From assembly GCA_963720045.1 (NCBI GenBank), contig CAVREC010000002.1, positions 69,361 to 133,360 on the forward strand: a DNA stretch of 64,000 nt. The letters are read 5' to 3'. The stretch is from an uncultured Actinomycetota bacterium (GTDB taxonomy: Bacteria; Actinomycetota; Thermoleophilia; Gaiellales; Gaiellaceae). Both the position numbers and the translations under genes were made by a program. Under the pieces are notes generated by a model. The model ran no database searches and was not told the origin of the DNA. It saw nothing but the letters and a program-made list of their open reading frames with translations. Shown one piece after another: positions 6,547-23,588 of this stretch; position 1 is the stretch's first letter, and each line of letters begins with the position of its first letter.

Positions 6547-9285
6547 TTACGCGTTCGGGTCGGGAACAGCCGGCAGGACCTGCACCGTGCTCCCGGTTCC
6601 GCCGCCCGGCTCCGGGGGCGGCGTGCCCGAACCGCCGCCCGAAACCGCGTCGAAGAGACCGCTGTTGCCGGTGCCCTGCTGAGCCGGCTCCGGGGTCGGT
6701 GACCCCGGGGTCGGTGCTGCGGGCGGCTCGACCGGAGGCGCCGCGCCCGCACCGGGCGGCTCGGGGGTGCCGCTTGCAAGGCCTGTGACGTCGCTTCCGC
6801 CTGCGAACTGCTCCTTGTAATACGGCTCGTCGAGGCTCGAGATCTTCACCACGTCGCCTGTGTGCGGGGCGTGGAGGAACATGTGGTTCCCGATGTACAG
6901 GCCCTCGTGGTGCACGTAGCCGGTCGAGTCCTTGAAGAAGACGATGTCGCCCGGCTTGAGGTCGTTCACGTTCGAGATGTGCTCGCCGACGTTGAACTGG
7001 TCGGCCGCGACGCGCGGGACGTGGATCCCGAGTTGGCCGTAGCTGTACTCCACGAGGCCCGAGCAGTCGAAGCCGGTCTGCGGCGTGTCGCCGCCCCAGT
7101 GATACGGCGTGCCGATGTATTTCTCCGCGATCGTCAGCGCCTGGACACCGGCCGCCGAGCCTCCGGCCGCGGCGCCCGTCGCGCCCTGGAGCGCTTCCGC
7201 TGCGGCAGCCGCGTCGGGCCCCGCGGTGCCTCCGGCTCCCGCCCCGCCCGGCCCACCTGCCGAAAGGAGGCTGTCGGCCTGGTCGAGGTGGGTCTGGTAG
7301 CGGCCGCGGTACTCGGCGGCGGGCTGCTCGACGTCCGCGACCCAGTCGCCCCACTTGCTCTTGTCCTGGCCGTAGCTCGCATCGCCCTGTGAGAGGCGTT
7401 CGCGCCGGACCTCGAGCGCCTGGTTGATGAACCACTTGAGCTGGAGCTCCGGGTGGTCGGAGAAGCCCTTGTACTCGCCCTGGTTCCAGATGCTCGTCCG
7501 CATCTGGAAGAAGCCGAGCGAGTCGCGGTCGCCGTAGTTGTCGTTCTTCAGGCCCGACTCGGTGAGCGCCGCCATGATCGGCAGCTCGGCCGGCAGCCCC
7601 GCCTTGTGTGCCTGCCGCGCCATCCACGCAGCGATCGCCTGCTGGGAGGCGTTGTCGCCGGGATAGGTGTCGCTCGCATCGGGCAGCCCGCCCGCCGCGT
7701 TCGGGTCGAATCCCTGGAGCGCCGACTCCGCGGCGGCTCCGCCGTGACCCGTGGCGGGCACCTCGAACTGGAAGGTCGAGTGACCCTCGCGGCCCTGCAC
7801 CGCTCCGATGACCATGCTCTGGTGCGTCGGCGGGGGTGGTGGCGCGCCGGGTGTCGTCACGGGCGTCACGGGCTCCGGCGGCGAGGTGGTCGGGGCGGCC
7901 GGCGGGGTGGTCGTGGGATCGGGCGGTGCGCCTCCGCCGGCGGGCGGCGTCGTCGGCGTGGGTGGAGGCGTCGTCGGCGCGGCGGGGGGAGTCGTCGTCG
8001 GATCCGGAGGCGGCGTCGAGGGCGCGGCCGGCGGGGTCGTTGCCGGATCGGGTGGCGTCCCGCCGGAAGGGGGCGTGGTCGCCGGGTCGGCCGGAGGCGT
8101 CGAACCGCCCTGTGGCTCTGGTGGCGTGGGCAACGGGGTGGGCGGCGGCGTCGTCGGCGCGGCCGGCGGCGTCGTGGTCGGGTCGGGTGGTGGTGTGGAG
8201 GGTGCGGCCGGCGGCGTCGTGGTCGGGTCGGGTGGTGGTGTGGAGGGCGCGGCCGGCGGCGTCGTGGTCGGGTCGGGTGGTGGTGTGGAGGGTGCGGCGG
8301 GCGGCGTCGTGGTCGGGTCGGGTGGTGGTGTGGAGGGCGCGGCCGGCGGCGTGGTGCTCGAATCCGGCGGCGTCGTGCCCGGCTCGGGCGGCGTCGTGCC
8401 CGGGGAAGGCGGCGTCGTTCCGGTGTCCGGCGTCGTCGAGGTGTCGACGGGGTCGTTCGTCCCGGCGACCATGTGCGTGGCCGGGGCCGAGGACGAGGGA
8501 GCGTCGAAGATGAGGTGGATCCGGTCGTCGTGGCCGCCGCCCTGCGTGAAGCCGTGCGCCTCGATCGGCCACGGTGTCACGATCTGCGCCGGCCGCAAGG
8601 ACGGGTCGAGCGAGGCGAGCTCGTTGGCCAGGTCGCGTGCGTAGATGTTCGACTGCGACACCCGCTCGCCGTCGACCGAGAGGATGTCGAACGAATCGCC
8701 TCCCGCCCCGTGGCTCACCTGGAGCGCCCCGATCTGGAGCTGGTGCTGCTTCGTCAGGTCGTCGAGCACCGACACGAGCCGAGCGTCGGCGCCGCCCCGT
8801 GCGAGGGCTGCGTGTGCCTCCGGCGAGAAGGTCAGGTGCGTGTTGTGAAGCAGGGTCGTGATGTCCGACGAGCTCGCGAGATGGGCCGATGAGCCCGAGC
8901 CCGCCAGATGGTCGGTGACGCCCGAGCCGTGGAGGTTGTCGGGATCGATCGCGTGCAGCTTCGGGCTCGTGAGCGCGTGATGGACGACCCGGTGGGCCTG
9001 GCCGTGAAGGTGGTTGTCATGGAGGTTCTTGAGGTGGTCGACGGCTCCGGTCCCCTCGGACGCGGCGGCCATGAACGCACCGGCGAGGCTCGAGCGGGAC
9101 TCGCGGATCTCGAGCGTGTGGAACATGCTCGCCGTGGAACCGCCGCCGAACTCGGTCGCGAGCTCCGGGAGGTCGAACTGCTCGCACGCGCTCGCCGGAT
9201 CGTGCCGGAAGCTCGCGCGGAACTCGTCGTCGGTCAGAAGCTTCTCGAGCAGCTCCGCAGCGCGTGCTTCGTCAGACGACTGCAC
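6547..9285 (-). CDS. multidomain cell-wall hydrolase: lytic-transglycosylase-like region plus NlpC/P60 endopeptidase; no signal peptide
   Basis: NlpC/P60 signature YIGTPYHWGGDTPQTGFDCSGLVEYSYGQLGIHVPR...GDIVFF...HHEGLYIG. SLT-like segment LPIMAALTESGLKN...DSLGFFQMRTSIW. Long TTPPAAPSTPPPDP repeats. The N-terminus MQSSDEARAAELLEKLLTDDEFRASF is hydrophilic. The start overlaps the upstream gene end by 14 nt. Confidence 0.85.
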   Translation of the reverse strand: MQSSDEARAAELLEKLLTDDEFRASFRHDPASACEQFDLPELATEFGGGSTASMFHTLEIRESRSSLAGAFMAAASEGTGAVDHLKNLHDNHLHGQAHRVVHHALTSPKLHAIDPDNLHGSGVTDHLAGSGSSAHLASSSDITTLLHNTHLTFSPEAHAALARGGADARLVSVLDDLTKQHQLQIGALQVSHGAGGDSFDILSVDGERVSQSNIYARDLANELASLDPSLRPAQIVTPWPIEAHGFTQGGGHDDRIHLIFDAPSSSAPATHMVAGTNDPVDTSTTPDTGTTPPSPGTTPPEPGTTPPDSSTTPPAAPSTPPPDPTTTPPAAPSTPPPDPTTTPPAAPSTPPPDPTTTPPAAPSTPPPDPTTTPPAAPTTPPPTPLPTPPEPQGGSTPPADPATTPPSGGTPPDPATTPPAAPSTPPPDPTTTPPAAPTTPPPTPTTPPAGGGAPPDPTTTPPAAPTTSPPEPVTPVTTPGAPPPPPTHQSMVIGAVQGREGHSTFQFEVPATGHGGAAAESALQGFDPNAAGGLPDASDTYPGDNASQQAIAAWMARQAHKAGLPAELPIMAALTESGLKNDNYGDRDSLGFFQMRTSIWNQGEYKGFSDHPELQLKWFINQALEVRRERLSQGDASYGQDKSKWGDWVADVEQPAAEYRGRYQTHLDQADSLLSAGGPGGAGAGGTAGPDAAAAAEALQGATGAAAGGSAAGVQALTIAEKYIGTPYHWGGDTPQTGFDCSGLVEYSYGQLGIHVPRVAADQFNVGEHISNVNDLKPGDIVFFKDSTGYVHHEGLYIGNHMFLHAPHTGDVVKISSLDEPYYKEQFAGGSDVTGLASGTPEPPGAGAAPPVEPPAAPTPGSPTPEPAQQGTGNSGLFDAVSGGGSGTPPPEPGGGTGSTVQVLPAVPDPNA
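8150..8345 (-). repeat. near-perfect 45-bp coding tandem repeat (TTTPPAAPSTPPPDP, about 4 copies) within a wider Pro/Thr tract (about 7860..8440)
   Basis: Direct reading of lines 8161-8340: the unit ggccggcggcgtcgtggtcgggtcgggtggtggtgtggagggygc recurs with 45-nt period. Confidence 0.85.
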
Positions 9286-10912
9286 CTTCGACTCCTGCCT
9301 CCCGGTCGCTTCGGCGTGCCGAGTACGCCTTCCAGAATACTGCCAGGATCGGGACGAGCATCAGGATGTAGAAGGCGATCAGCACCGCCCAGACGAGGCT
9401 CGCCGGGGCGATCGCGGTCATGTAGCCGTAGTAGCGCTGCGACATCACGACCGTGAACGCGGCGGTTGCGAGCGACCAGACGAGCGCGGTCACCGCGTAG
9501 GTGGCGAGCACGCCCGCGTCGTCGGGCTCCGCTTCCCGCCCGGAGAGGCGGTTCGAGAGCCATTCGCGCGAGCGGCGGCGCAGCCCGGGCTCGCGCATCA
9601 GGTCGACGAGGATGTGGTAGCCGTCGCGGTCGAGCAGCGGGTTCAGGTTGAAGATCGCGCCCGTGTAGGCGGCGAGGGCGAGCTGGAACCAGACGTCCTG
9701 CAGCGTCCCCGGCGACGAGAAGACGGCGAGGAGCGCGGCGGCGCCGGCGATCGTGAGGTCGCTGATCGGGCCCGCGGCGCTGATCGCGATCCGCCGGCGC
9801 GCCGGCTCGAACCACGCCTCCGAGGTGTCCACGTAGGCGTACGGGAAGATCAGCATCAGCTTGATCCCGGCCTTCGGAACCTTCCGGCCGAACGACTCGA
9901 CGGTCAGCCCGTGGGCGAACTCGTGCACGATCACGACGAGGAAGCGCCCGACGAGGAACACGATCCCTCCGACTCCGACCTTGCCCGCGACCACGAACGG
10001 GGCCACGGTGCCGCTGCCGATCAGGTCCGCGAACGCGACGATCCCGGCAGCCGAGATCAACGCGAACGCGATCAGCGGGGGCCGAGTGAAGAGCAGGAAG
10101 CCGCCGGCGCGATAGACCTTCGTGAAGACCGGGCCGAGCCAGGTGAAGTCCCACTGGCGCATCCGGAAGAGACGGGCAAGCTTCTTCTTCGAAGGCGGCG
10201 CCTTCGCCTCCTCGACCCCCTCGAGCAGGCCCCGCTCGCCGAGGTCTGCCAGCATCGAGGCGAGCTTGCTCGGGCCGTCGGCGCCGAAGCGCCCTGTCGC
10301 GGCCACGATCAGGCTCGACAGCGAGTTCTCGCCGTTCAGCAGCCCGAGCAGGTTTGCGTCCTCGGCGCTCAGCCGCACGAAACGGCCGTCGGGGCCGCGC
10401 AGGACGAAGCGGAGGTCGCCCTCGTCCGCGGCCAGCCGCTTCAGCTTCGAGCCGGCGCGCAGGCGGGGGAAACGGAGCGCGGCACCGTCCTCGTCGGGCA
10501 GGCCGGGGATCGCGCCGAAGACGACCGTGCGGCCGCTCTCCGACTCGTTGCGCTTTGCCTCGATCGTCAGTTGCACGTCGCCGAGCCCGAGCTTCGAGCC
10601 GTCGCGGAGCAGCGTCCGGCCGGTGATCTGCTGCCCGTCGACGAACGTGCCGTACGTCGAGCCGGCGTCCTCGACCGCCGGCCCGTCCGGGTCGATCACG
10701 ATCCGCGCGTGGTTACGGGAGACCGTCTCGCCCTGGATCCGGATCAGGTTCTCGCTGCCGCGGCCGAGCGTCAGCGGGCCGTAGACGAGCGGGATCCGGC
10801 GCCCGTCGCCGATGACGAGCTCGAGCGGCGCGCGGCCCTTGACGGGCGTGCCGCAGACGGTGCAGACGTCGTCGTCGCGTGCGATCTGGCATCGGCAGCT
10901 TCGGCAGAGCAT
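9272..10912 (-). CDS. zinc-ribbon + FHA domain + polytopic M50 (site-2-protease-like) metalloprotease
   Basis: ATG at 10912 lies 1 nt after the stop of the upstream gene (10914). Zinc ribbon CRSCRCQIARDDDVCTVCG. FHA signature LTLGRGSEN..VSRNHARIV..DAGSTYGTFVDG. Several TM segments. HEFAH (HExxH) and NLNPLLDRDGYH (NxxPxxxxDG) motifs. Confidence 0.8.
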   Translation of the reverse strand: MLCRSCRCQIARDDDVCTVCGTPVKGRAPLELVIGDGRRIPLVYGPLTLGRGSENLIRIQGETVSRNHARIVIDPDGPAVEDAGSTYGTFVDGQQITGRTLLRDGSKLGLGDVQLTIEAKRNESESGRTVVFGAIPGLPDEDGAALRFPRLRAGSKLKRLAADEGDLRFVLRGPDGRFVRLSAEDANLLGLLNGENSLSSLIVAATGRFGADGPSKLASMLADLGERGLLEGVEEAKAPPSKKKLARLFRMRQWDFTWLGPVFTKVYRAGGFLLFTRPPLIAFALISAAGIVAFADLIGSGTVAPFVVAGKVGVGGIVFLVGRFLVVIVHEFAHGLTVESFGRKVPKAGIKLMLIFPYAYVDTSEAWFEPARRRIAISAAGPISDLTIAGAAALLAVFSSPGTLQDVWFQLALAAYTGAIFNLNPLLDRDGYHILVDLMREPGLRRRSREWLSNRLSGREAEPDDAGVLATYAVTALVWSLATAAFTVVMSQRYYGYMTAIAPASLVWAVLIAFYILMLVPILAVFWKAYSARRSDREAGVEGAVV

Positions 10913-10913: not shown

Positions 10914-13874
10914 TCACGGGGGTGTGACGTATTGCCAGGACGGGTTCTGGGCCCCGGAGGCGCGGAGCTGGGTGACCGTGCCCGCCGAGGCGAGCTGCAG
11001 CCGGGCGAGCGCGCCGAGGGCATTCGAGCATGCGTTGTCGGCCTGCGTGACGATCACCTCGCCGCCGTCGGCGCGCCACGTGACCTCGCAGGCGCGAACC
11101 GTCGGGGTGACGGGTTTCGGCGTGCCGAGCTGGCCGCTCGACCACGTGGCCGTGTAGAGCCGGAAGACCTGGTTGTTCGTCCAGTTGGCGACGAGCGCGA
11201 CCTGCGTCCCGTCGGGCGAGAACGCGGCGTAGATCACGGCGTCGCTGCCTTTCGAGCCGTGCATCTTGTCGGTGACGAGGCCCTGCCACACCCAGTCGCT
11301 CGGGCTCGAGGAGAACGGGCGGGCGGTCGTGTACTCGCCGAGCTCGATCTGGTTCTTGTCCTTCGGGTCGTGTGCGACGACGAGGATCGCCCGCCCGTCG
11401 GGCGACCAGGCCGGGCGGTCGACGTCGAACGCCGGGTCCTTGATGCACGCGCCCTGATGGAGGGTCGAGGCCGTGCGGACGAAGCAGAGGTCGCCGTCGG
11501 TACCCGTCGAGGTCTTGCGAATGAACGCGATCACCTTGCCGTCCGGGGAGAACGCGGGTCTGCGGTCGTTCGGGCCCGCCGTGATCGCCCGCGCGCTCGT
11601 CGCGCCCTTCGAGGTGTCGACCATCCAGACCTTTCCCGCGTTCGCGTTCCCCGCCGGGCCGCGGCGGAAGGCGACGAGATGGCCGTTCGGCTGCCAGCTC
11701 GGCTCGTCCTCGGCATCGCCCGACGCCGCGATCTTCTTCGCGGCGGCGCCGTTGACCGCGCTCATCGTGTAGATCGAGGAGCCGTCGGAGAAGGCGACCG
11801 GAGGCAGGCCGGCGGAGATGATCAGCTGGACGGTCGCGCCCTTCGTCACCGTCGCCGGGTTCGTGCCGACGACCGTCCCGGGCTTCGCAGCGTCGAACTG
11901 CTGGCTCGTGACCGCCGTCGCACCCGCGGCTTTCACCGCCGCGGCCGCAGCGGCAGCGCTCTGCCCGGCGAGGGCGCCGCCGGCGACGGGCGTCGGCGTC
12001 GTCGTCTTTGTCCCGCCGGTCGTGGGCGGCACGACCTTCGGCGGATTGACGTAGATCGTCACCGCCGAGCCGGCCTTCTCCCTCGATTGCGCCGTCGGAA
12101 CCTGGAGCGAGATCTTCGCGGTCGTCGGGTTCACGGTCGAGGGAATCGGGTTCAGGACCGGCGCCAGTCCGGCGCCCTTGATCAGGGCCGAGGCCTGCGC
12201 GATCCCCTGGCCGACGACGTTCGGCACGGTGCGGAGGCCGCTGCCGACCGCGACGACGATCGTGATCGTCGTCCCTTCCGCGACCGGCGTCTTCGCGGCC
12301 GGGCTCTGGGTGATGATCGTGCCGATCTTCTTCTTCGCCCGCGAGGCGAGCTCGGGCTTGGCGGGACCGAGCACGAGCTTCAATCCGGGCAGTACTTTCT
12401 GGGCCTGCGCCTGGGTGGCGCCCACGAGGTTCGGGACACGCGGCTCGGCGACGAAGAACGTGACGGTCTTCCCGGTCTTGATCCTGTTTGCGGTGAAGTG
12501 GCCGTTCTGGACGGGCCCCTTGTGCCAGCTCGGGTTCTGCCTGACCACATGGAGGTAGGCGACCGTCTTCGAGGGCACCTCGCCGGGCGGCTGCGAAGCC
12601 GGCTTCAGGTTTGCCTTCTGGATCGCGAGCTGGGCTGCTGCGATCGTCATCCCGTGCAGATCCGGCACCGTCGTCTTGTGCGGGATCAGCGAATAGAGCA
12701 GTACCGCCGCCGCGATCAGGGCCGGGATCACGATCGGCACCCAGAAGGGGATCCACGGCTTCTGGCGGAAGGTGCCCTGAAGCGGCCTCGCGGTGGACTC
12801 GCCGACAGCCCCCTTCGCCGTGACCTCGAAGCGGCGCTCGATGATGCGTCCGACCCAGTGGTTGTGTTTCGGCTTGACGGTGAACTTCGTTCCGTCTCGC
12901 CGCCCGGGCTCGGCGACGAAGCGCGGCTTCTCGAAGTTGAAGTTGAGCGCGTTCTGGTTGTCGACCGCGGTGATCTCGGTGTCGAGCGGGGCGTTCGCCT
13001 TGTTCCGCACCATCACCGCGTACTCTCCGCGCCGCCGGCCGACGACGATCTCGGGCCGCAGCTCGCTCTCGATCTGCTCGTACGGGGTGATCTCGACCTT
13101 GCCCGCGGTCAGGCCGGTCACCTCGTTCTGGGCACGCGAGAGGGCGATCACCTCGATCTCCCAGATCCGCGCCTCGGCCTCGGCGCTGCGCGGCGGGCTG
13201 AAGTTGATGTGGACGTCCTGCTCGTAGGTGCCGCTCGGTGCGCCGAACGGGACGAGGTAGACCGACGGGGGCGTGACGTTCCACCACTCCTCGGGCATCC
13301 CCTTCACCTGGATCTCGTAGTTGTCGACGATGCCGCTCTGGTTGCGGACGAGCGCAGGCAGCGGGACGTGGCCGCCGGCCTCGACGACGAGTTTCTGCTC
13401 TTTGCCGGGAAGCTCCGGGTAGTTCAGCGTGATCTGCACCGCCTCCGTGACAAGGAGCGGCGCGACGCCCGGGATGTTCGGGGCATTCGGATCGCCCGCA
13501 CGGATCACGGGCATGTCCATCGTGCGCATCACCGGCACGGGAATCTCGACCGCGTGCTGTTCCTCGGGCGGCGCTGCGGGCGGTTCGGGCGGCGCTGCGG
13601 GCGGTGCGGAAGCCGCCGGCGGCGGAGCGGCTGCGGGTGGCGGGGCGGTGGCGGCAGCCGCACCTGCCGCTGCTGCCGGCACTACCTCGGCCGGAGCGGG
13701 CTCTTCAGGAGGAGGTGCGACCGGCGCAGGCTCGGCCGGCGCAGCGGGCGCTTCGGCCTCGGGCAGCTTGACGGCGGGCTGGAGCCGTGTCGGGTCCCAG
13801 CGCAGGTAGGTGCCGCAGTTGACGCAGAAGTCGACGTCGTCGTTCTCGTGCGCGCACTTCGGACAAGGGGCCAT
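10914..13874 (-). CDS. bitopic membrane protein: N-terminal zinc ribbon and Ig-like cytoplasmic region, one TM, 3-4 PASTA domains, TolB-like beta-propeller
   Basis: Zinc ribbon CPKCAHENDDVDFCVNCG, then a Pro/Ala linker and the TM helix WIPFWVPIVIPALIAAAVLLYSLI. PASTA-like units (TVPDLHGMTIAAAQLAI.., RVPNLVGATQAQAQKVL.., RTVPNVVGQGIAQASALI..). Repeated FSPDG/WSPDG propeller motifs (RPAFSPDGKVIAF, RPAWSPDGRAILV, AAFSPDGTQVALV). Confidence 0.8.
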   Translation of the reverse strand: MAPCPKCAHENDDVDFCVNCGTYLRWDPTRLQPAVKLPEAEAPAAPAEPAPVAPPPEEPAPAEVVPAAAAGAAAATAPPPAAAPPPAASAPPAAPPEPPAAPPEEQHAVEIPVPVMRTMDMPVIRAGDPNAPNIPGVAPLLVTEAVQITLNYPELPGKEQKLVVEAGGHVPLPALVRNQSGIVDNYEIQVKGMPEEWWNVTPPSVYLVPFGAPSGTYEQDVHINFSPPRSAEAEARIWEIEVIALSRAQNEVTGLTAGKVEITPYEQIESELRPEIVVGRRRGEYAVMVRNKANAPLDTEITAVDNQNALNFNFEKPRFVAEPGRRDGTKFTVKPKHNHWVGRIIERRFEVTAKGAVGESTARPLQGTFRQKPWIPFWVPIVIPALIAAAVLLYSLIPHKTTVPDLHGMTIAAAQLAIQKANLKPASQPPGEVPSKTVAYLHVVRQNPSWHKGPVQNGHFTANRIKTGKTVTFFVAEPRVPNLVGATQAQAQKVLPGLKLVLGPAKPELASRAKKKIGTIITQSPAAKTPVAEGTTITIVVAVGSGLRTVPNVVGQGIAQASALIKGAGLAPVLNPIPSTVNPTTAKISLQVPTAQSREKAGSAVTIYVNPPKVVPPTTGGTKTTTPTPVAGGALAGQSAAAAAAAVKAAGATAVTSQQFDAAKPGTVVGTNPATVTKGATVQLIISAGLPPVAFSDGSSIYTMSAVNGAAAKKIAASGDAEDEPSWQPNGHLVAFRRGPAGNANAGKVWMVDTSKGATSARAITAGPNDRRPAFSPDGKVIAFIRKTSTGTDGDLCFVRTASTLHQGACIKDPAFDVDRPAWSPDGRAILVVAHDPKDKNQIELGEYTTARPFSSSPSDWVWQGLVTDKMHGSKGSDAVIYAAFSPDGTQVALVANWTNNQVFRLYTATWSSGQLGTPKPVTPTVRACEVTWRADGGEVIVTQADNACSNALGALARLQLASAGTVTQLRASGAQNPSWQYVTPP

Positions 13875-13888: not shown

Positions 13889-14542
13889 TCAGTCAGCGGG
13901 CGGCGGCGGCTTTTTCGCAGCTTTGACGCGCAGTCTGTAGGTCACATGCACCGGTTTTGTCTCCTCGATCACCCGCGCGATCGCGAGCTGGGTCTTTTCG
14001 GGAATCGGAGTGTCGCAGTAGACCACAAAGCTCGGTGGGGGAGCCTTCGTTCGTGTCTCAGGATTTGTCGACCACGTGACCCCGCCGCCGTCTTCGACCC
14101 GGAGCGGGATCTTCGGGAACGCGATCGAAAGCGCGAGCGTGAGGCCCGCTTTCGTCCCGCGCTGCCGCGAGAGCTCTCCTTCGCGGCTGAGCGCCTCGCG
14201 GAGCCGGTCGTCGGGCCAGCCTTCCTCGACGTTCAGGCCGAGCCACGAGGCGAGCAGGTCGAGCACGTCGCGCGGGGCGAGCGTCGGATGGAAGTAGAGC
14301 GAGAGCACGTCGAGCGTGCCCACGATCGGATCGAGCGCCGTCTCGAGCGCGCCCAGGAAGCGCAGGCCGAAATCTCCGTCCTGGTAGATGCTCGGCATGT
14401 TGTTGCGCAGGTAGCCGCGCATCGAGACGACCTCGGGCGCCTTTCCGGCCGAAAGCCGCGCCCGGAGGTTCGTCGTCGAGAAGCCACGGCGCGTCGTGAC
14501 CCCGTGCGCGAGCGAGGTGCCCTGAACGGTCGACGGGCTCAA
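13889..14542 (-). CDS. baseplate protein, phage tail protein I-like (P2 gpI / Afp12 position)
   Basis: Characteristic MPSIYQDGDFGLRFLGALETALDPIVGTLDVLSLYFHPTLAPRDVLDLLASWLGL. The start overlaps the upstream stop (14539..14542). An internal start at MRGYL is possible. Confidence 0.7.
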   Translation of the reverse strand: MSPSTVQGTSLAHGVTTRRGFSTTNLRARLSAGKAPEVVSMRGYLRNNMPSIYQDGDFGLRFLGALETALDPIVGTLDVLSLYFHPTLAPRDVLDLLASWLGLNVEEGWPDDRLREALSREGELSRQRGTKAGLTLALSIAFPKIPLRVEDGGGVTWSTNPETRTKAPPPSFVVYCDTPIPEKTQLAIARVIEETKPVHVTYRLRVKAAKKPPPPAD

Positions 14543-16545
14543 ATCTCTGCCCGCTCGGCCTTGATGATGTGCGTGCCGGACGCGATCACTTCGTCCTCGC
14601 CGATCTCGATGTAGCTGCCGGCCGGTTTCGGATCCTGCTTGCCGCTGGCAAGGTCGGTCTCGTAGACGCGGAGGATCTTGATGAACTCGACGCCCTCGAT
14701 CTTGCGGACGATCCCGTAGAGCTCACCCTGATTCAGCGAGCGCCCGAACTCCCAGCCCTCGCCGAGGCCGTCGGTCGAGCCGCCGACGAGTGGGTTCAGG
14801 TAGCTGTAGAGGGCGTAGCCGACGTCCTGCTCGACGCGCTCGAGGTCGGCGTTGATCGAGGCCTGGAGGTTCACGACGACGCTGACGCCGTGCAGCTTCA
14901 CCGGCAGCAGCTCGAGGCTCATCCCGATCACGCGCCGCTCGTCGAGGTACTCGGCGACCTCGGTCAGGAGCGCTTCGTCGGGCGACAGCTCGTCGACGCT
15001 GAGCTGACGGTCGGCGGGAGCGACCATCGGCAGGATGTGGACGCGCACCATCCCGTCCTCGCCCGGCGGCAGGCACACGGCGCGGGCGACCCGGGGCGAG
15101 GCCTCGCCGCAGAGGAACTCGAAGTCGTCCGGGGTGACGGCCCGGTAGCGCGTCCGGATCTCGAGCGCAGCCCTGTTCCTCGCGCTTTCCAGCGATTCCG
15201 GGTCGACTCCGCCGAACGCGGGCCGGAGGTTCGTCACCGTGTCCACGCCCGGGATCGCGCTCTTCAGCACCGACAGCGTGCCGCTGGAGACGTTCCCCTG
15301 GCGGCCACCGCCATGCCGGTACCGGGTGAAGCGGAGCGTCGCATCCTTCTTCGGGACGCCGCCGTACTGCTGCCAGTTGCCGTCGGGCGTGCGGATCGCC
15401 GGGCCGAACTCGAGCTGTCCCGCCGCGGCGTTCAGGACGTAATGCCGGGAAGTCGGCTTGCTCTCGACGAAGGACTCCACCTGATCCCAGCGCTCCCACG
15501 TCCCTGAGTCGGGGTCGAGCACCTCGAGGAACTCCTCGGGCGTCGGGTCGAGGATCGGGTAGTAGCGGAGCTCGAAGACCTGCCCCGGCGTCCCGTCGCT
15601 CGCGCCGACGATCTCCTCGTTCACGCGCTCGGAATGGGCGGCGGGGATGATCGCTCCGATCGGGGCCGCCGTGATCCCATGGATCTCCGGCGGATGGGAG
15701 TAGGTGGCCCCGCCGCTCGCGCCCGAGCGCGTCTTCGAGTCGAGCCGGCAGCAGACCCAGTAGGCGCGGTGGCCCGCGATCGGGACGGCGGTGTGCTCGG
15801 CGGGAAGCTGGATCGTCACCTTCCCGGACCCGTAGTTGAAGCCTCCGGTCAGGTCCTCGACCACCTCGGCCTCGAGCCACCCCGTCTCCTCCTCGGCGAC
15901 CGAGACCTCCCAGCGAAGCGGCGGATCCTCGGGATCGACGCCGGCGCCGCGGGCCTGGGAGCAGTCCACGTCGACCTCGAGCAGGATGTTCGCGAGCGGG
16001 ACGTCGAAGCCGAGGTAGAGGGCATCGCCGGCCTTCGGCGGGGTGCCGAAAGCGTTCTGGTCCGGCCCCTTCGGCTTCGCGACACCGTTCGCGACGCCGA
16101 TGTCCTTGACTGCGCCGCCCCGCTTGACCGCGTAGAAGCCCGGCCGCGCCGGGGGGATCGTGAAGTCCTGGGAGGTCTGGAAGACGATCGCCGCCTCGTT
16201 CGCGGTTCGGATCGTCCCGACCTCGGTCTCGCCGGCGGGGATCTCGACCGGCTCGGTGGGCGGTGCGGTGAGCTTGAAGCGAAGATGCGTCGTCGCGGCG
16301 ACCGGCGGCTCCAGCTCGATCCCGAGCAAGTTCAAGAGCGTCACATGCAGCTTCTCGGGAACGCGGTTCAGCCGGTAGATGATCGTCTCGGTCAGCCAGG
16401 CGAACAGCTCGACGAGCGTGATCCCCGGGTCGGAGACGTTGTGCTCCGACCATTCGGGACAGCGTTGCGAGAGCCGCTGGCGAGCCTCGTTCACGAGGTC
16501 CTGGAAGCCGCGGTCGTCGAGGGTGACCTCGGGGATCCGGCTCAT
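14539..16545 (-). CDS. baseplate J-like protein (Afp11 / gp6-like wedge)
   Basis: ATG at 16545 shares one nt with the gp25 stop (TGATG). The N-terminus IPEVTLDDRGFQDLVNEARQRLSQRCPEWSEHNVSDPGITLVELFAWL is typical of CIS baseplate assembly proteins. About 668 aa, the 3' part of track ORF 14539..18495. Confidence 0.85.
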   Translation of the reverse strand: MSRIPEVTLDDRGFQDLVNEARQRLSQRCPEWSEHNVSDPGITLVELFAWLTETIIYRLNRVPEKLHVTLLNLLGIELEPPVAATTHLRFKLTAPPTEPVEIPAGETEVGTIRTANEAAIVFQTSQDFTIPPARPGFYAVKRGGAVKDIGVANGVAKPKGPDQNAFGTPPKAGDALYLGFDVPLANILLEVDVDCSQARGAGVDPEDPPLRWEVSVAEEETGWLEAEVVEDLTGGFNYGSGKVTIQLPAEHTAVPIAGHRAYWVCCRLDSKTRSGASGGATYSHPPEIHGITAAPIGAIIPAAHSERVNEEIVGASDGTPGQVFELRYYPILDPTPEEFLEVLDPDSGTWERWDQVESFVESKPTSRHYVLNAAAGQLEFGPAIRTPDGNWQQYGGVPKKDATLRFTRYRHGGGRQGNVSSGTLSVLKSAIPGVDTVTNLRPAFGGVDPESLESARNRAALEIRTRYRAVTPDDFEFLCGEASPRVARAVCLPPGEDGMVRVHILPMVAPADRQLSVDELSPDEALLTEVAEYLDERRVIGMSLELLPVKLHGVSVVVNLQASINADLERVEQDVGYALYSYLNPLVGGSTDGLGEGWEFGRSLNQGELYGIVRKIEGVEFIKILRVYETDLASGKQDPKPAGSYIEIGEDEVIASGTHIIKAERAEI

Positions 16546-16952
16546 CAGAAAGCCTCCGAGGGCTCGGCGGGGATCACGTAGAACGGATAGACGAGGTTGC
16601 GGAGGTCGTTCGTCGCGCGCAGCCGGTAGGTGATCTCGATCGTCAGCACGCCCTCGGCCATCCCGGTGAGGTCGGGGTCGACGCCGAGCACGTCGATCCG
16701 GGGCTCCCAGCGATCGAGCGCCGAGCGGATGTCGTACTCGATCTTCGCGAGCGTGGAGGGGTCGATGTTCCCGAAGACGTGGTTGTGGATCCCGCAGCCG
16801 AACTCGGGCCGCATGGGGCGCTCGCCCGGGGCGGTGCCGAGGATGAGGTCGATCGCCTCCTGAACGTCGCTGTCGCCGGAGCTCAGCGCAAGCCCCCCGA
16901 GCCGGTCGACTCGGAGCGGAAACGCAATCCCGGTGCCAATGATGTCGGACAT
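16545..16952 (-). CDS. gp25/GPW-like baseplate wedge protein (Afp9-like)
   Basis: GTGIAFPLRVD...EAIDLILGTAPGERPMRPEFGCGIHNHVF. GGAAGGGG RBS upstream of ATG 16952. Confidence 0.9.
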   Translation of the reverse strand: MSDIIGTGIAFPLRVDRLGGLALSSGDSDVQEAIDLILGTAPGERPMRPEFGCGIHNHVFGNIDPSTLAKIEYDIRSALDRWEPRIDVLGVDPDLTGMAEGVLTIEITYRLRATNDLRNLVYPFYVIPAEPSEAF

Positions 16953-16970
16953 CTACCCCTTCCTGGTCTG

Positions 16971-18626
16971 TTAGCCGAGGCTGATCTGGGTGCCGGAGAT
17001 GGAGATCACGCCCATCGAGTTCATCGTGAACGAGGAGCTTCCGCACTTGATCTCGAGCTGGGTCGTGCCTTCGATCGAGATCGAGGTGCCGCCCTTGATC
17101 GTCACCGACTGGGCGCCGTCGAGCGTCATGTCCTGCTGGGGCTTCTGGTCGATCTTCCCCGTCGTCTCGAGGCTGAAGTCCTTGTCGGACTTGATCGTGA
17201 TCACGTCTTTCGCGTGCATCTGGATCTTCTGGTCGGATTGGAGCGAGAAGGAGCCGTCCTGGATCGCCAGATCCTGGCCGGGCTTGTTTTGCCCGTTCCA
17301 GACCGACCCGAGCACGTACGGGTGGTTGACGTCGTCGTGCTCGAAGCCGATCACGACCTCGTCGCCGACCTGCGGCATCATCATCAACCCCCGGGCGTTG
17401 CCGGCGTTCGGCCCCGTCACGCGTGCCCACCACCCCTCCGTATCCGCGCCGAGAGCCGGGTAGCTCACGCGCACCCGGCCCATGTTGTCGGGGTCGTTGT
17501 TGTTCGTGACGAGCCCGATCACGACGGAGTTGCCCCAGCCGCGCTTGCTCTTCGGGGTCATCAGGTCGACGAGGCTGCGCGCCGAGCGCCCCGAGGTGGA
17601 GAAGAGCGTCCGGTAGCCGTGCGAGCCCTGGAAGAGATGCGTGCAGGACGAAACGACGTACGTCCCGCCGAAGCTCGTGCCGATCCCGTCGATCTTCACC
17701 TTCGAGCCGGCCTTGATCGCCGGGTTGCCCTTGGCGACCCCTTCGGCCTCGAGATAGCCCGCTCCCATGTGCGAGGCGTACGCGCTCGAGAGGTCGGACG
17801 CCTCCTGCTGCGAGAGCACCGGCCGGTCGGCGACGACCATCGTTCCGCCGCTCAGCGCCGAGGCCGCCGCTGCGCGGGTGATCCCGATCGCGGAAGCCGG
17901 CTCCTGGATGCTGCTCGTCGACTCGAACGAGCTGTTCCCCTTGGGGTCGCGGGCTCGCACGGTGACCTGGTCGACCTGCTGGACGGCGGAGACGCGCGGC
18001 TTGAAGCTGATCAGGGTGTCGCCCCACTTGAGGCTGATGTCCTGCGTGCCCGCGGGCGGGCCGGCCTTGCGGAAGTAGAGCTTGTGGTCGATCACGAGCA
18101 CCTCGAAGTCGATCCGCCCGGCGAGCTTCCAGAGGAACTCCCAGTCGGTCTCGTTGTTCTGCTGGACGAAGTCGTAGGCGGAGCCGCTGCTGTCGATCTG
18201 ACCGATCTCGGTCCCGTTCCGGCCCGCGATCTTCTGGGCGATATCGGCCGCCGTCATGTTCTGGTACGTATCGGCGACCTTCGTCTGGTGGAGCAGGTGC
18301 GAGCCGTCGTAGGCCCTGAAGCCGAGCGTCGTGCCCTGGGCGAACTCGGGCTCGAGCGAGACGACCTTGCCCTTGAAGACGCTCGACAGCGAGGTTCCGT
18401 CGATGGCCGAGAGGAGCACCTCGATCTCGCTCCCGATCTGGATCGGGAACTTGTCGATCGTCGCGAGGCCCGGGTCGGTGAACCGCAGCAGGCACGCATC
18501 CGGCAGCCGCAGGTTCTCCTGGATCCGCGCCTCGACGAGCCGCTGCCCGACCTCGTCGTCGAGCTTCGTCCCGCTTACGCGCACCTCCGCTCCGGAGACG
18601 GCGCTCACGCCGGAACCTCGGTGCAT
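16971..18626 (-). CDS. VgrG-like spike (gpD + gp5 OB-fold; Afp8-like)
   Basis: gpD-like N-terminal half. gp5-like GLVTNNNDPDNMGRVRVSYPALG...GWWARV...MMPQVGDEVVIGFEHDDVNHPYVLGSVWN. Beta-helical C-terminus with no extension. An alternative GTG start at 18608 is possible. Confidence 0.9.
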   Translation of the reverse strand: MHRGSGVSAVSGAEVRVSGTKLDDEVGQRLVEARIQENLRLPDACLLRFTDPGLATIDKFPIQIGSEIEVLLSAIDGTSLSSVFKGKVVSLEPEFAQGTTLGFRAYDGSHLLHQTKVADTYQNMTAADIAQKIAGRNGTEIGQIDSSGSAYDFVQQNNETDWEFLWKLAGRIDFEVLVIDHKLYFRKAGPPAGTQDISLKWGDTLISFKPRVSAVQQVDQVTVRARDPKGNSSFESTSSIQEPASAIGITRAAAASALSGGTMVVADRPVLSQQEASDLSSAYASHMGAGYLEAEGVAKGNPAIKAGSKVKIDGIGTSFGGTYVVSSCTHLFQGSHGYRTLFSTSGRSARSLVDLMTPKSKRGWGNSVVIGLVTNNNDPDNMGRVRVSYPALGADTEGWWARVTGPNAGNARGLMMMPQVGDEVVIGFEHDDVNHPYVLGSVWNGQNKPGQDLAIQDGSFSLQSDQKIQMHAKDVITIKSDKDFSLETTGKIDQKPQQDMTLDGAQSVTIKGGTSISIEGTTQLEIKCGSSSFTMNSMGVISISGTQISLG

Positions 18627-18651
18627 GGCACCGTTGTTGTCTCGGAGCGGC

Positions 18652-19347
18652 TCATTCCTCGATCTTCGGGATCGAGAGGATAGAGCCGCGCTTCAGGTGC
18701 AGCGGGTCGTCGATCCCGTTCGCCTCGGCGATCGAACGCCAGCGGGTCGGGTCGCGGTAATGGAGAAACGCGATCGAGGCGAGGCTGTCGCCGTCCCGCA
18801 CCGTGTGCGAGCCGAGGCCGGGCTGGGATCGCGTCGTCGGGTTCTGTGGGGCCGCCGAGCCGTGTTGGCTCGACGGGTCCATCGCCCGCTCGGCCTGGAT
18901 CAGCGAGAGCTGAGCCTGCGCGCGCACGGGTGTGCCGTCCGCGCGGAAGAGCGTGTACTGAATGCTCAGGCTGTCGGCGACGGCCTTGAAGGAGACGACG
19001 CTGCCCCAGACGAAGGTGACCATCGGCGGCCGGCCACTGTTTCGGGCGGAGCCCGAGGCGAGCCCCGCCTGCACCTCCATCATGTTGAAGAGCTGCTGGG
19101 TCACCTGGGTGACGTCGAGGCTCTGGGAGTCGGTCGAGTCGAAGAGAAGCTGAAGCGTGAGCTTGCGGGGATGGCCGCCGCCGAACTGCGCGGGCGGAAG
19201 CGCCGTCCCGACGACCGGTTTGACCGTCCAGTCGTTCTGCTTGGCGATCGTGTAGTCCTTGGGGTTGAACCAGCAGTCGATCGGGTCGCCGCCGCCCTCG
19301 ATCTCGAGGCTCGCAAGTTCGAATCCGGTGAGGGGTGGTAGCGGCAT
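18652..19347 (-). CDS. LysM-domain tube-initiator/hub protein (Afp7 / P2 gpX-like)
   Basis: ATG at 19347 lies 2 nt after the upstream stop. C-terminal LysM HTVRDGDSLASIAFLHYRDPTRWRSIAEANGIDDPLHLKRGSILSIP. It sits between the tube-like and VgrG genes. Confidence 0.85.
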   Translation of the reverse strand: MPLPPLTGFELASLEIEGGGDPIDCWFNPKDYTIAKQNDWTVKPVVGTALPPAQFGGGHPRKLTLQLLFDSTDSQSLDVTQVTQQLFNMMEVQAGLASGSARNSGRPPMVTFVWGSVVSFKAVADSLSIQYTLFRADGTPVRAQAQLSLIQAERAMDPSSQHGSAAPQNPTTRSQPGLGSHTVRDGDSLASIAFLHYRDPTRWRSIAEANGIDDPLHLKRGSILSIPKIEE

Positions 19348-19349
19348 GG

Positions 19350-19829: not shown

Positions 19830-19844
19830 CGTCTCTCCTTGCTG

Positions 19845-22559: not shown

Positions 22560-22564
22560 GTGCG

Positions 22565-23097: not shown

Positions 23098-23125
23098 GTG
23101 ACCTCCTCAACCCCCTCGTTGCTCG

Positions 23126-23566: not shown

Positions 23567-23588
23567 TTAGCTCCTCCTCTCTTTGTGT

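Follow-up and report, generated by a model that had tools for sequence, protein, structure and literature searches.

What occupies the position in a CIS gene cluster at which a tail fibre would be expected? In the window analyzed here, the whole stretch of 64,000 nucleotides, the minus strand carries in this order VgrG (16971-18626), gp25/W (16545-16952), baseplate J/Cis11 (about 14539..16560), gpI/Cis12 (13889..14542) and our target gene (10914..13874). Cis11 matched TIGR02243 (E 3e-126) and shares, over its N-terminus, 50% identity with S. coelicolor Cis11 (BLASTP E 5e-43 against a Cis11 fragment). The 217-aa Cis12, a baseplate wedge protein, matched Tail_P2_I (E 3e-10) and TIGR02242 (E 1e-21). 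The remaining CIS structural cluster (16545..31449, minus strand) comprises gp25, VgrG, a LysM tube initiator, two gp19-type tube proteins, sheath, Pvc16 cap, an AAA+ ATPase and an eCIS_core protein. The target start codon, an ATG backed by conserved homologue N-termini (MAPCPKC...), follows the gpI/Cis12 stop at a spacing of 14 nt and opens a reading frame of 986 aa plus stop. This frame has a clear coding signature (GC3 0.91 against GC2 0.53 in a genome of 70% GC), 230 homologues were found, and the AF2 model of the full-length protein reached a pLDDT of 81. Positions 10914-13874 are a genuine gene, as the initial annotation had observed.

That annotation read the product as a bitopic protein rather than an ordinary fibre, with zinc ribbon, linker, Ig-like modules, transmembrane (TM) helix, PASTA units and a TolB-like propeller. 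All of these are present, and both the position directly after gpI and the single N-in TM helix bear out the reading. The N-terminal zinc ribbon (residues 1-27, 13794..13874, minus strand, as for all target segments) has cysteines at positions 4, 7, 17 and 20, followed by G-x-Y-L-R-W-D. Its motif CxxC...FCxxCG is nearly invariant among 32 homologues; the Pfam family Zn_ribbon_3 matched it at residues 4-21 with E 0.009 only. A disordered Pro/Ala-rich cytoplasmic linker follows (residues 28-142, 13449..13793; pLDDT below 50, conservation 0.36), and then, on the cytoplasmic side next to the membrane, two tandem Ig-like domains ending in FRQKPW (residues 143-375, 12750..13448). Residues 376-398 (12681..12749) form the single TM helix, modelled as helical at 379-393. 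They contain the sole 19-residue window in the whole protein with a Kyte-Doolittle hydropathy above 1.6, and conservation of this hydrophobic 23-residue helix is strong. In 32 sequences its flanks show a positive-inside bias, with 73 K/R on the N-side versus 31 on the C-side; a signal peptide was not found in the target. PASTA domains are, to our knowledge, extracytoplasmic in every case studied. Because of the K/R bias around the only TM helix, together with this domain logic, we predict an N-in, C-out topology with a cytoplasmic N-terminus and the PASTA and propeller domains outside, in line with the orientation first proposed.

In the ectodomain, Pfam PASTA matched four stretches (E 1.8e-26) and the model contains four helix-plus-sheet units, settling an earlier count of three to four. 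Units 1-3 span residues 402-611 (12042..12671) and unit 4, after an Ala-rich disordered linker (612-628), residues 629-688 (11811..11990). Foldseek matches included PrkC and PknB PASTA structures, and the NCBIfam model PknB_PASTA_kin (E 8e-26) matched only with its TM and PASTA part. The TolB-like beta-propeller (residues 689-986, 10917..11810) was recognized by PD40 (E 1.4e-10) and partially by the TolB NCBIfam model (E 3e-13). It contains five motifs of the FSPDG/WSPDG type, [FW]-x-[PA]-[DN]-G, at residues 727, 775, 823, 885 and 933. Against the PDB, the best 11 Foldseek matches were all TolB (E 4e-14, rmsd 3.3-4.5 Å over about 305 columns).

In Streptomyces, the slot after cis11-cis12 harbours cisA (PMC12237407). 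S. coelicolor needs its product, first noted as Sco4242 (PMC10020575, PMC10066040), to fire its CIS: in a cisA deletion CIS stay extended and CIS-dependent death is abolished, and Cis11 is the predicted binding partner of the cytosolic part of CisA (PMC12237407). CisA itself was not seen when purified particles were mapped by cryoEM (PMC12237407), which counts against the adaptor reading of the target. Aligned with hhalign to the profile of our family, CisA residues 4-37 matched with 90% probability (E 1.6e-6). With the family zinc-ribbon HMM, S. coelicolor CisA scored 19.9 bits; the slot protein of S. clavuligerus (23.3 bits) and the CisA homologue in the slot of S. cattleya (49.6 bits) were scored as whole ORFs with two ribbons summed. 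In contrast, about 80 neighbouring FHA-M50 zinc ribbons, without the L-x-W part, reached only 8-16 bits. These alignments indicate that the target ribbon is homologous to the N-terminal ribbon of CisA, with the caveat that the ribbon has only about 28 residues, that CxxC...FCxxCG occurs in zinc ribbons of many kinds and that only the L-x-W-[DE] tail and its spacing make the match specific. The adaptor idea thereby gains direct homology support.

The likeness goes beyond the ribbon. Both proteins lie directly after cis11-cis12 in a common CIS lineage, as the 50% identical Cis11 illustrates, and both are bitopic, N-in/C-out. They have identical ribbon spacing (C-x2-C ... F-C-x2-C-G-x2-L-x-W-[DE]), long disordered linkers, Ala/Pro/Gly-rich in CisA, and extracytoplasmic C-terminal domains. 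That of CisA is reported to resemble sugar-binding or carbohydrate-degrading proteins (PMC10066040, PMC10020575) and is compared here by this description. The earlier view that the CisA architecture is different thus holds in part. CisA has 468 aa and a second zinc ribbon just before the TM helix, where the target has two Ig-like domains. Its C-terminal domain, also likened to substrate-binding proteins, measures roughly 150 aa, whereas the PASTA units and the TolB propeller of the target together take up about 590 aa. In the S. clavuligerus CIS region, its CisA-type slot protein included, a PASTA/propeller profile found no match. Vladimirov et al. proposed the second ribbon of CisA as the baseplate attachment site, and its absence from the target counts against an adaptor function. 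Taken together, we put the probability that the target is a CisA-type membrane adaptor or trigger with a peptidoglycan-binding ectodomain at about 60%. Most likely it is the Thermoleophilia version of such an adaptor, one that would dock the injector to the cell membrane and might sense the wall.

The family is confined to Thermoleophilia, and the cultured Miltoncostaea marina has the module. In 72 of 77 informative genomes, gpI/Cis12 lies directly upstream of the target homologue, in a set that spans Gaiellales, Solirubrobacterales and Miltoncostaeaceae at protein identities of 28-89%. The architecture is hence kept beside CIS baseplate genes in three orders, down to about 30% identity. That the target is an unrelated envelope protein next to the CIS cluster by chance, for which one could cite full-length members (loci L051, L077) and three short forms (L082, L084, L085) away from CIS genes, is effectively refuted by this synteny (72/77), by the tight coupling on both sides and by homology to two CIS-specific Streptomyces proteins. 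Among metagenome loci seeded with Cis11 and with sequence past gpI, a zinc-ribbon ORF begins at the gpI end in 34 of 53, and the complete ORFs among these 34 encode zinc ribbon, low-complexity linker, one TM helix and a variable C-terminus. Mean pairwise identity within the family is highest in the zinc ribbon (0.63), with 0.55 in the first Ig-like domain and 0.36-0.41 in PASTA units 3 and 4 and the propeller. Conserved cytoplasmic modules versus diverged outer ones would fit a constant intracellular partner and a faster-evolving ectodomain.

Downstream, the target stop is followed after 1 nt by a gene for a protein with zinc ribbon, FHA domain and a multi-TM HExxH (M50-like) membrane protease (9272..10912, minus strand); of 74 loci, 73 have such an FHA/M50 gene as the next one downstream. 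The second companion (6547..9285, minus strand; 912 aa) contains an NlpC/P60 peptidoglycan endopeptidase domain by Pfam and NCBIfam, an NHLP-leader-like N-terminus and Pro/Thr repeats, and inspection by eye revealed neither signal peptide nor TM segment. An NlpC-like gene is found downstream in 59 of 59 loci, and M. marina has a Peptidase_M23 in its place. Convergent to these genes runs one for a receptor Ser/Thr kinase (2344..6513, plus strand; Pkinase E 3e-50) with a long Ala/Pro region; read by eye, its sequence further shows a TM-like hydrophobic stretch and a C-terminal region rich in beta structure. Of 59 loci, 41 have a kinase within 10 kb downstream and 18 lack one.

The Ig-like pair (about residues 143-375), a beta-sandwich pair modelled with pLDDT 90.8, was also part of the initial annotation. 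A Pfam search assigned it no family, the sole match being FixG_C at E 0.1, and Foldseek matched its model to RbmA, FimC-type chaperones, CEP192 and ASH domains. These are the published structural templates of domain 1 of Sco4256. Sco4256-58 were published as effectors or putative toxin of the Streptomyces type IId CIS; when they are deleted, more particles are empty and nisin no longer induces death, and in E. coli they prove toxic (PMC10066040, PMC10020575). Our Ig-Ig HMM (A3) found Ig-Ig-TM ORFs in two CIS clusters, that of S. clavuligerus at 116.6 bits (E 5e-38) and that of S. cattleya at E 1.9e-35. On this evidence, the Ig-Ig-TM unit of the target is homologous to Sco4256-type proteins of Streptomycetaceae CIS clusters, the alignment covering the architectural equivalents of Sco4256 in these two species. 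The Ig-like modules are thus present as first described; they are not anonymous, however, and correspond to the N-terminal domain of the Sco4256-58 family. In both groups two Ig-like (PapD/RbmA/CEP192-like) domains lead straight into one TM helix, beyond which the C-terminal domain varies, and the membrane-proximal F-x-Q-x-P motif is found in the matched Streptomyces ORFs, too. In contrast to the target, Sco4256-type proteins begin at Ig-Ig, without zinc ribbon or linker, are encoded elsewhere in the CIS cluster, end in ricin-lectin, toxin-like or PG_binding_1 domains and are read as luminal cargo. Their ectodomains include ricin lectin in Sco4257/58 and the wall-binding PG_binding_1 in S. clavuligerus. 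Together with the C-terminal domain of Sco4242, these give the Streptomyces relatives outer parts linked to glycans, carbohydrates or the wall as well, a point in favour of the adaptor reading. Judged by sequence, the target is a fusion of two known CIS accessory modules with a new ectodomain, which predicts that CisA-type and Sco4256-type proteins act together. Outside CIS, too, the Ig-Ig module is widespread: the set counts 5,413 representatives, among them many kinase or FHA fusions, which weighs against an adaptor-specific role.

That the Ig-Ig module belongs to published effectors, not adaptors (PMC10066040), counts against an adaptor. The target could itself be a Sco4256-58-type effector or cargo, in which Ig-Ig would load the protein onto or into the particle, and TM helix and ectodomain, as toxic or membrane-disrupting part, would cause cell death after firing. 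The homology, the common templates and the deletion and toxicity phenotypes all favour this. Nonetheless we hold it to be unlikely: Pfam, NCBIfam and Foldseek found no toxin-like domain among the four PASTA units, the propeller and the rest of the 986 aa, the protein has the slot and the zinc ribbon of CisA, and a tube lumen could hardly accommodate a protein that sits stably in the membrane and has an ectodomain of 590 aa. Moreover, the cluster already contains a payload candidate in the signal-less NlpC/P60 hydrolase.

PASTA domains sense muropeptides and lipid II. The target might hence be a wall sensor in a Ser/Thr-kinase/FHA module that controls CIS assembly or hydrolase activation with no particle docking, in analogy to PknB signalling or the T6SS threonine phosphorylation pathway. 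The neighbouring FHA/M50 and kinase genes would suit such a role, as would the recurrence of the TM-adjacent Ig-Ig unit in kinase- or FHA-fused proteins, which take the post-Cis12 slot in loci L154 and L164. However, the target itself lacks catalytic and phospho-binding domains, the CisA-type ribbon is its best-conserved part, and kinase-free loci exist. Short paralogues that keep zinc ribbon and Ig-Ig, their sensor ectodomain swapped for 3-4 TM helices, are still CIS-linked (L083 after Tail_P2_I, L086 before eCIS_core). We regard this role as rather improbable, ranking behind that of a cargo. Far less probably, the target serves an extracellular CIS released by lysis as a genuine tail fibre or as its receptor-binding protein, the hydrophobic segment being no membrane anchor. 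PASTA units and propeller would then bind Gram-positive target walls, the gene is in the tail-fibre slot, Sco4242 was itself first termed a putative fibre by Vladimirov et al., and the genes next door, for a membrane protein and a peptidoglycan hydrolase, resemble a lysis pair. Yet the AF2 full-length model contains no fibrous, coiled-coil or beta-helical region, the hydrophobic helix is conserved with positive-inside bias, and the short forms carry several TM helices.

As a CisA-type adaptor, the target may work as follows. At the end of a long flexible linker, the zinc ribbon would capture the peripheral Cis11/Cis12 wedge of the assembled CIS, perhaps assisted by the membrane-proximal Ig-Ig pair, and hold the baseplate at the inner face of the membrane. 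This contact would permit or trigger sheath contraction, as with CisA in S. coelicolor. The ectodomain might use peptidoglycan or lipid II as an anchor for the adaptor, or report wall damage or sites of wall growth, and so set the site or timing of firing. With the FHA/M50 protease, the peptidoglycan hydrolase and the receptor Ser/Thr kinase, the target could form one module that gates firing through phosphorylation and opens the thick wall, or serves as delivered payload.

Further known systems resemble the target in part. PASTA kinases (PknB, PrkC, Stk1) and PASTA-bearing PBPs likewise carry extracytoplasmic PASTA repeats right after a single TM helix; the target, however, is without kinase or transpeptidase domain, its cytoplasmic part consists of zinc ribbon and Ig-Ig, and the separate receptor kinase nearby is without PASTA. 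The propeller superposes on TolB of Tol-Pal and has PD40 repeats, whereas the TolB N-terminal domain and Tol-Pal genes are absent, the TolB equivalog score is 49 bits against a cut-off of 343, and the host, of actinobacterial lineage, is presumably monoderm. The T6SS threonine phosphorylation pathway (PpkA/PppA/Fha1, TagQRST) also combines a contractile machine with a receptor Ser/Thr kinase, an FHA protein and envelope-facing sensors, and anchorage of the machine at the cytoplasmic membrane, in the T6SS through its membrane complex, would be a further parallel. In contrast to that pathway, FHA is fused to an M50-like membrane protease here; no homology was found between the components of the two, and we use the parallel as a working analogy only. 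Anabaena offers, as cited in PMC12237407 (Weiss et al. 2022), an intracellular CIS that is attached to a membrane by TM-bearing baseplate-associated proteins. There, according to the same account, extensions of baseplate proteins anchor to the thylakoid, whereas the target would be a separate putative adaptor across the cytoplasmic membrane.

In the window, which has a GC content of about 70%, the ORF at 10914-13874 (minus strand) starts with ATG and encodes 986 aa. Its GC3 of 0.91 against a GC2 of 0.53 follows the pattern of the neighbouring genes and marks it as a real gene. It lies in an operon of a contractile injection system (CIS), entirely on the minus strand, that in reading direction comprises an eCIS_core protein (30751-31449), an AAA+ ATPase (28749-30803), a Pvc16 cap (25690-26583), the sheath (23589-25136), two gp19-type tube proteins (23126-23566 and 19350-19829), a VgrG-related spike (16971-18626), gp25/W (16545-16952), baseplate J/Cis11 (about 14539-16560; TIGR02243, E 3e-126) and, directly upstream of our target, gpI/Cis12 (13889-14542). 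The gap between the gpI stop and the target ATG is 14 nt, and a further 1 nt separates the target stop from the ATG of an FHA/M50 gene. The position after cis11-cis12, called the slot in the following, is that of the tail fibre in P2-type gene order. At the tape-measure position (19845-22559, minus strand) there is a 904-aa ORF with a GC of 0.78 (GC1 0.80, GC2 0.71) and no Pfam match; in a close relative (L001), gene calls split this region differently, into 201 + 219 aa on one strand and 371 aa on the other, and in Miltoncostaea marina it is one 803-aa gene. Beyond the CIS cluster, the window has genes for a response regulator of LuxR type at 33810-34448 and for an SARP/AfsR-like regulator with BTAD, AAA and TPR domains at 36928-39675; 39763-41349 encodes a protein with GAF, SpoIIE phosphatase and HATPase domains. 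The Streptomyces clavuligerus CIS cluster is likewise flanked by BTAD regulators.

The target protein starts with a zinc ribbon (Cys 4, 7, 17 and 20) and a disordered Pro/Ala linker (residues 27-142), followed by two Ig-like sandwiches (about 143-375; AF2 pLDDT 90.8), a hydrophobic helix (376-398), four PASTA units (Pfam E 1.8e-26) and a PD40 propeller with TolB as best PDB matches in Foldseek (E 4e-14, rmsd 3.3-4.5 Å). Pfam, AF2, Foldseek and the sequence itself thus recovered all domains that the initial annotation had named. The helix is the sole hydrophobic window, we found no N-terminal signal sequence, and in 32 homologues the 15 residues before the helix hold 73 K/R, the 15 residues after it 31. 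From this we predict a bitopic protein with a cytoplasmic N-terminus and with PASTA units and propeller outside the cell, where PASTA domains are expected, in agreement with the single-pass orientation initially proposed. Since Pfam was nearly blank on the cytoplasmic region alone (FixG_C at E 0.1 only), we used structure and profile searches to identify it.

A word-seeded search returned 230 homologues, nearly all of 800-1040 aa and none functionally named. Scanning one genome per species gave 80 loci, all from Thermoleophilia or unclassified Actinomycetota MAGs, with Gaiellaceae/Gaiellales, Solirubrobacterales and Miltoncostaeaceae as named carriers. The closest of these, at 86-89% identity, stem from Gaiellaceae-type soil MAGs, which makes a Gaiellales member the probable source of the window. 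When the window proteins were searched by tblastn against the homologue loci, gpI immediately preceded the target homologue in 72 of the 77 loci that were informative, so that the expected conservation of this architecture beside CIS baseplate genes is indeed seen. The FHA/M50 gene was directly downstream in 73/74 loci, an NlpC/P60-like gene followed in all 59 loci with enough flank, and a Ser/Thr kinase was found within 10 kb in 41/59, convergent in 37. Exceptions are three Solirubrobacterales loci (L056, L062, L079) with about 5-6 kb between gpI and the target homologue; three ORFs occupy the L056 insert (about 4800-10000), one of which encodes Big_3_5 Ig domains, and such ORFs may be additional baseplate-distal components. 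The cultured M. marina (CP064655) has the whole arrangement, with a Peptidase_M23 instead of the NlpC/P60 hydrolase. Its adaptor gene (10001-12692 of locus L087, CP064655.1) is called as two overlapping ORFs in different frames (681 aa with PASTA, 268 aa with PD40); the gene may truly be split there, or a frameshift or sequencing error may lie behind it. Two more PD40-propeller genes follow the hydrolase in this species.

In an alignment of 32 homologues, mean pairwise identity was 0.63 for the zinc ribbon, 0.55 for the first and 0.44 for the second Ig domain, 0.36-0.41 for PASTA3, PASTA4 and the propeller, and 0.26-0.36 for the linkers. Invariant residues are concentrated in the Ig-Ig pair (RNQSGIVDNY, VYLVPFG, PPRxAEAEAR) and in a membrane-proximal FRQKPW motif; the cytoplasmic side is hence the more conserved interface. 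Among 1.84 billion representatives, 5,413 proteins, including kinase- and FHA-fused ones, matched a profile HMM of the Ig-Ig region (A3) with E-values of at most 1e-3, which rules out a CIS-specific module. In the fused proteins examined, which carry the kinase or FHA domain N-terminally, Ig-Ig stands directly N-terminal of a predicted TM helix and is hence a cytoplasmic, membrane-proximal module. It is widespread and unnamed (P0184, P0226, P0232, P0254 and P0249 among the representative proteins found with A3), often stands between a kinase or FHA domain and a TM helix, and sometimes occurs in 4-7 repeats; Pfam barely touches it (FixG_C, Cep192_D3, NPCBM_assoc). Foldseek templates of the Ig-Ig model were RbmA, FimC-type chaperones, CEP192 and ASH domains; against viral structures, the model gave generic Ig-like matches and no baseplate or fibre match.

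RbmA, FimC-type, CEP192 and ASH templates were also reported for domain 1 (residues 2-212) of Sco4256 (Vladimirov et al., PMC10020575). Sco4256-58, CIS-associated effectors of Streptomyces, share an N-terminal domain and one TM helix and vary in their C-terminus (PMC10066040). In the plasmid CIS cluster of S. clavuligerus, the sole A3 match is WP_003963535, annotated as a 'hydrolase' and absent from published tables. Its Ig-Ig pair spans 12-217 (116.6 bits, E 5e-38), with a TM helix at 215-249 and PG_binding_1 as C-terminal domain. It is linked to Sco4256 by its architecture, by its place in the cluster and by HHpred/Foldseek templates that are identical. In the CIS cluster of S. cattleya pSCATT, again a single ORF, of Ig-Ig-TM type, matched A3 (E 1.9e-35), and this plasmid was listed with homologues of both Sco4242 and Sco4256 (Vladimirov et al., PMC10020575).

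Sco4242 is CisA, which is encoded in the same slot in S. coelicolor and is needed for CIS contraction and CIS-dependent cell death; its topology is N-in/C-out, and its cytosolic part is predicted to bind Cis11 (PMC12237407). For comparison we used CisA residues 1-310, taken from the AF3 model in the supplement of that paper. CisA begins MTTQNCAECGTPAEPGQSFCDACGAVLSWDQ and the target begins MAPCPKCAHENDDVDFCVNCGTYLRWDPT. In hhalign, CisA residues 4-37 aligned with the target family profile at 90% probability (E 1.6e-6). A zinc-ribbon profile (ZnR HMM) built from the first 33 columns of the family alignment matched CisA 5-32 with 19.9 bits (i-E 3.8e-4, background 15,682 ORFs). The slot proteins of S. 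clavuligerus and S. cattleya pSCATT scored 23.3 and 49.6 bits, respectively, as whole ORFs with two ribbons summed, and the first pSCATT ribbon alone had an i-E of 5.7e-11. In the FHA/M50 proteins encoded beside the target homologues, the zinc ribbons reached only 8-16 bits and matched the CxxC...CxxC core only, not the L-x-W tail. Homology of the target ribbon with the CisA N-terminal ribbon is thus probable from these profile matches, rather than certain, because the motif is short. Over its first 133 residues, S. coelicolor Cis11 shares 50% identity with the window baseplate J, and the two CIS machines are therefore related. We also considered whether the Ig domains might offset a peculiarly short Cis12 of 217 aa; this was ruled out, as S. 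clavuligerus Cis12 is similarly short, with 222 aa.

The window contains exactly one such zinc ribbon and one Ig-Ig module, both in the target; hence we read it as a CisA-type head fused to a Sco4256-type Ig-Ig-TM body with a new ectodomain. In 77 of the 80 Thermoleophilia loci, there is a single Ig-Ig ORF; in the remaining three, the ORFs resemble pieces of one gene broken up by frameshifts. The A3 matches also include short forms, 435-472 aa long, which combine zinc ribbon, Ig-Ig and 3-4 TM helices and have neither PASTA nor propeller. One stands directly after Tail_P2_I (L083, 6716-8134) and one directly before eCIS_core/AAA (L086, 8001-9323). Three more (L082, L084, L085) are away from CIS genes, one of them in an integrative-element-like region with RepSA, FtsK and TpcC. 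With two of the five short forms examined being CIS-adjacent, this subfamily is only partly CIS-linked.

As a reverse test, we scanned metagenome contigs with an alignment of Cis11 sequences, the S. coelicolor fragment among them, and obtained 80 loci, 53 of which had a gpI match and at least 150 nt beyond. In 34 of these 53, an ORF begins within a few nt of the gpI end and matches the ZnR HMM at its N-terminus, with the motif ...DFCxCGEYLRWEPT in a close lineage (Cis11 55-67% identical) and ...FCGxCGxFLEWxGE in distant ones (Cis11 38-41% identical). Complete slot ORFs are 326-992 aa long from the ribbon; in most of them the ribbon precedes a low-complexity linker, in many cases another ribbon, then a single TM helix and a C-terminus that varies, and several match CisA 1-310 in phmmer (e.g. 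L165, 3.5e-10; L141, 2.7e-9). Their ectodomains include F5/8-type-C-like domains (L152, L147), and L162 (11948-14266) encodes a zinc-ribbon/Ig/TM/PASTA/NPCBM protein. Elsewhere, a kinase(+FHA)/Ig-Ig/TM(+Big_2) protein fills the slot (L154, 3746-7294; L164, 3254-6310), or Ig-Ig-TM has a gene of its own a short distance downstream of the zinc-ribbon gene (distant loci such as L115, L152 and L140). Ribbon, Ig-Ig, kinase, FHA and wall-binding ectodomain are thus reshuffled around the post-Cis12 slot in distant CIS lineages. From the counts and the variety of ectodomains, we conclude that this slot as a rule encodes a bitopic protein headed by a zinc ribbon and that the ectodomain is lineage-specific.

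The FHA/M50 gene coupled to the target (9272-10912, minus strand) encodes a multi-TM HExxH protease with a zinc ribbon at the N-terminus and an FHA domain (E 7e-15). Among NCBIfam models, it matches NF041824 best, a daptide (RiPP) intramembrane metalloprotease, with a score below cut-off (E 1.7e-35); the literature searched contained no FHA-fused M50-like protease beside a CIS. The next gene (6547-9285, minus strand) encodes a 912-aa protein with an NlpC/P60 domain (E 5e-28), long Pro/Thr repeats and an SLT-like ESG...GFFQM stretch; by eye we saw neither a signal peptide nor a TM helix in it. Its residues 7-42 pass the NHLP-related RiPP leader model TIGR04509 (36.4 bits, cut-off 34). The protein could serve as the CIS payload, or it could open the wall as an enzyme from which the neighbouring RiPP-type protease cleaves the leader. 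Convergent to these genes, 2344-6513 (plus strand) encodes a receptor Ser/Thr kinase of 1389 aa. Its kinase domain spans 55-305, an Ala/Pro-rich region covers about 600 aa, and by eye we noted a TM-like hydrophobic stretch and a C-terminal part rich in beta structure. Its last 60 or so codons form odd HDDADDDAD repeats.

We hence propose that the target acts as a CIS membrane adaptor. The ribbon, on its flexible linker of about 115 residues, and the membrane-face Ig-Ig pair would bind the peripheral Cis11/Cis12 wedge, and this contact would bring the baseplate to the membrane and license contraction, as for CisA. PASTA units, whose ligand class is peptidoglycan or lipid II, and the propeller could bind peptidoglycan or lipid II and thereby immobilise the adaptor or report wall state, and kinase, FHA/M50 protease and hydrolase would act with it. 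To this mechanism as a whole, i.e., docking, wall binding and companions, we assign a probability of roughly 0.6. What the analysis shows is gene position, translational coupling, predicted topology, the two homologies, the conserved module and the greater conservation of the cytoplasmic side; the mechanism is inferred.

The main rival is that the target behaves like the published Sco4256-type effectors. Sco4256-58 are toxic in E. coli, and their deletion leads to more empty particles and to loss of nisin-induced death (PMC10066040). The target shares their Ig-Ig-TM body and carries in the same chain a CisA-type ribbon; this fusion questions a pure 'effector' reading even of Sco4256-58, and we regard the rival as unlikely. 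A little less probable again is a role in signalling only, in line with the kinase- and FHA-fused Ig-Ig proteins and the conserved companions. A true fibre is very unlikely. Gene position is all that the target shares with phage or eCIS tail fibres of the P2 gpH or Afp13/Pvc13 type, which are soluble, elongated trimers bound to the baseplate by their N-terminus; neither tail-fibre Pfam families nor fibrous repeats were found in the target, and we reject this reading because of its conserved TM helix and globular model. Two homologues (L051, L077) lie away from any CIS gene, L077 coming from a MAG in which another copy is CIS-linked, but next to the prevailing gpI linkage a bystander is very unlikely as well.

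If the adaptor reading is extended, we may speculate that kinase, adaptor, FHA-M50 protease and the signal-less, leader-bearing hydrolase form a wall-gated platform that turns a cytoplasmic CIS into an outward-firing T6SS-like weapon or autolysis device, presumably of a monoderm host. The ectodomain would read peptidoglycan state, phosphorylation would recruit the FHA protease, the protease would mature the hydrolase, and the docked CIS would fire via the locally opened wall. This scenario is doubtful. If true, a single membrane docking complex would have CisA as one half and the Sco4256-type 'effectors' of Streptomyces as the other, in place of adaptor and cargo. Kinase and FHA protein beside a contractile machine recall the threonine phosphorylation pathway of the T6SS.

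These results address how cytoplasmic Gram-positive CIS meet the membrane and what triggers them. To our knowledge, CisA is the sole known adaptor of such systems. A short ribbon with an L-x-W-[DE/G] tail is common to post-Cis12 proteins of Streptomycetaceae, Thermoleophilia and distant metagenomic CIS lineages and thus is a concrete candidate docking element to mutate. Furthermore, a CisA-type ribbon and a Sco4256-type Ig-Ig-TM in one chain provide a Rosetta-stone argument for joint membrane action of the Streptomyces proteins. The PASTA ligand class and the conserved kinase, FHA protease and hydrolase make a coupling of firing to wall state experimentally approachable, with M. marina as a cultured carrier. 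As a kind, CIS membrane adaptors encoded in the fibre slot are already known; the architecture, the fusion and the conserved companions are new. As the initial annotation had supposed for a PASTA/TolB-bearing adaptor, the literature searched contained nothing linking CIS with PASTA domains, nor with FHA domains in Actinobacteria or with Thermoleophilia, and the genome set of the CisA paper contains no Thermoleophilia (PMC12237407).

Compared with known families, the target differs from PASTA Ser/Thr kinases (PknB/PrkC/Stk1), which have a Hanks-type kinase N-terminal to the TM helix; it has no Pkinase match, and NF033483 gives 91 bits against a cut-off of 450 over model positions 331-562 only. 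TolB combines an N-terminal domain with the propeller in a Tol-Pal operon. The target has the propeller fold only (TIGR02800, 49 bits against a cut-off of 343, model positions 304-418 only), and no Tol-Pal neighbours occur in the window. With Sco4256-58, the target shares a PapD/RbmA-like double-Ig N-domain of about 200 aa, aligned via the S. clavuligerus and S. cattleya ORFs and for Sco4256 by templates, and a TM helix directly after it (FRQKPW and TM 376-398 in the target, FDQRPV and TM 215-249 in S. clavuligerus). Their C-terminal domain is lectin/toxin-like, in contrast to PASTA and propeller, and their family traits also include toxicity on expression and a contribution to luminal density. 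CisA has been described as largely unstructured at its N-terminus, with a predicted contact to the particle. HHpred zinc-ribbon matches were reported at Sco4242 residues 5-28 and 219-244, the second, Cys-rich region being proposed as a possible baseplate attachment (Vladimirov et al., PMC10020575); the words zinc and cysteine do not appear in the main text of the CisA paper (PMC12237407). The initial annotation had considered CisA to be of different architecture. This holds for the second ribbon ('domain 2', CisA 223-240, about 50 residues before the TM helix), which the target lacks, having no Cys cluster between residue 21 and its TM helix, where instead the Ig-Ig pair stands. It also holds for the carbohydrate-/substrate-binding-like C-terminal domain of about 150 aa, in place of which the target has four PASTA units and a propeller; a PASTA/propeller profile searched against the CIS region of S. 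clavuligerus, slot protein included, gave no match. It does not hold for the N-terminal ribbon ('domain 1', Sco4242 about 5-28), for the gene position directly downstream of cis11-cis12 in a CIS-Sc-type cluster or for the predicted bitopic N-in/C-out topology, all of which the target has in common with the CisA family.
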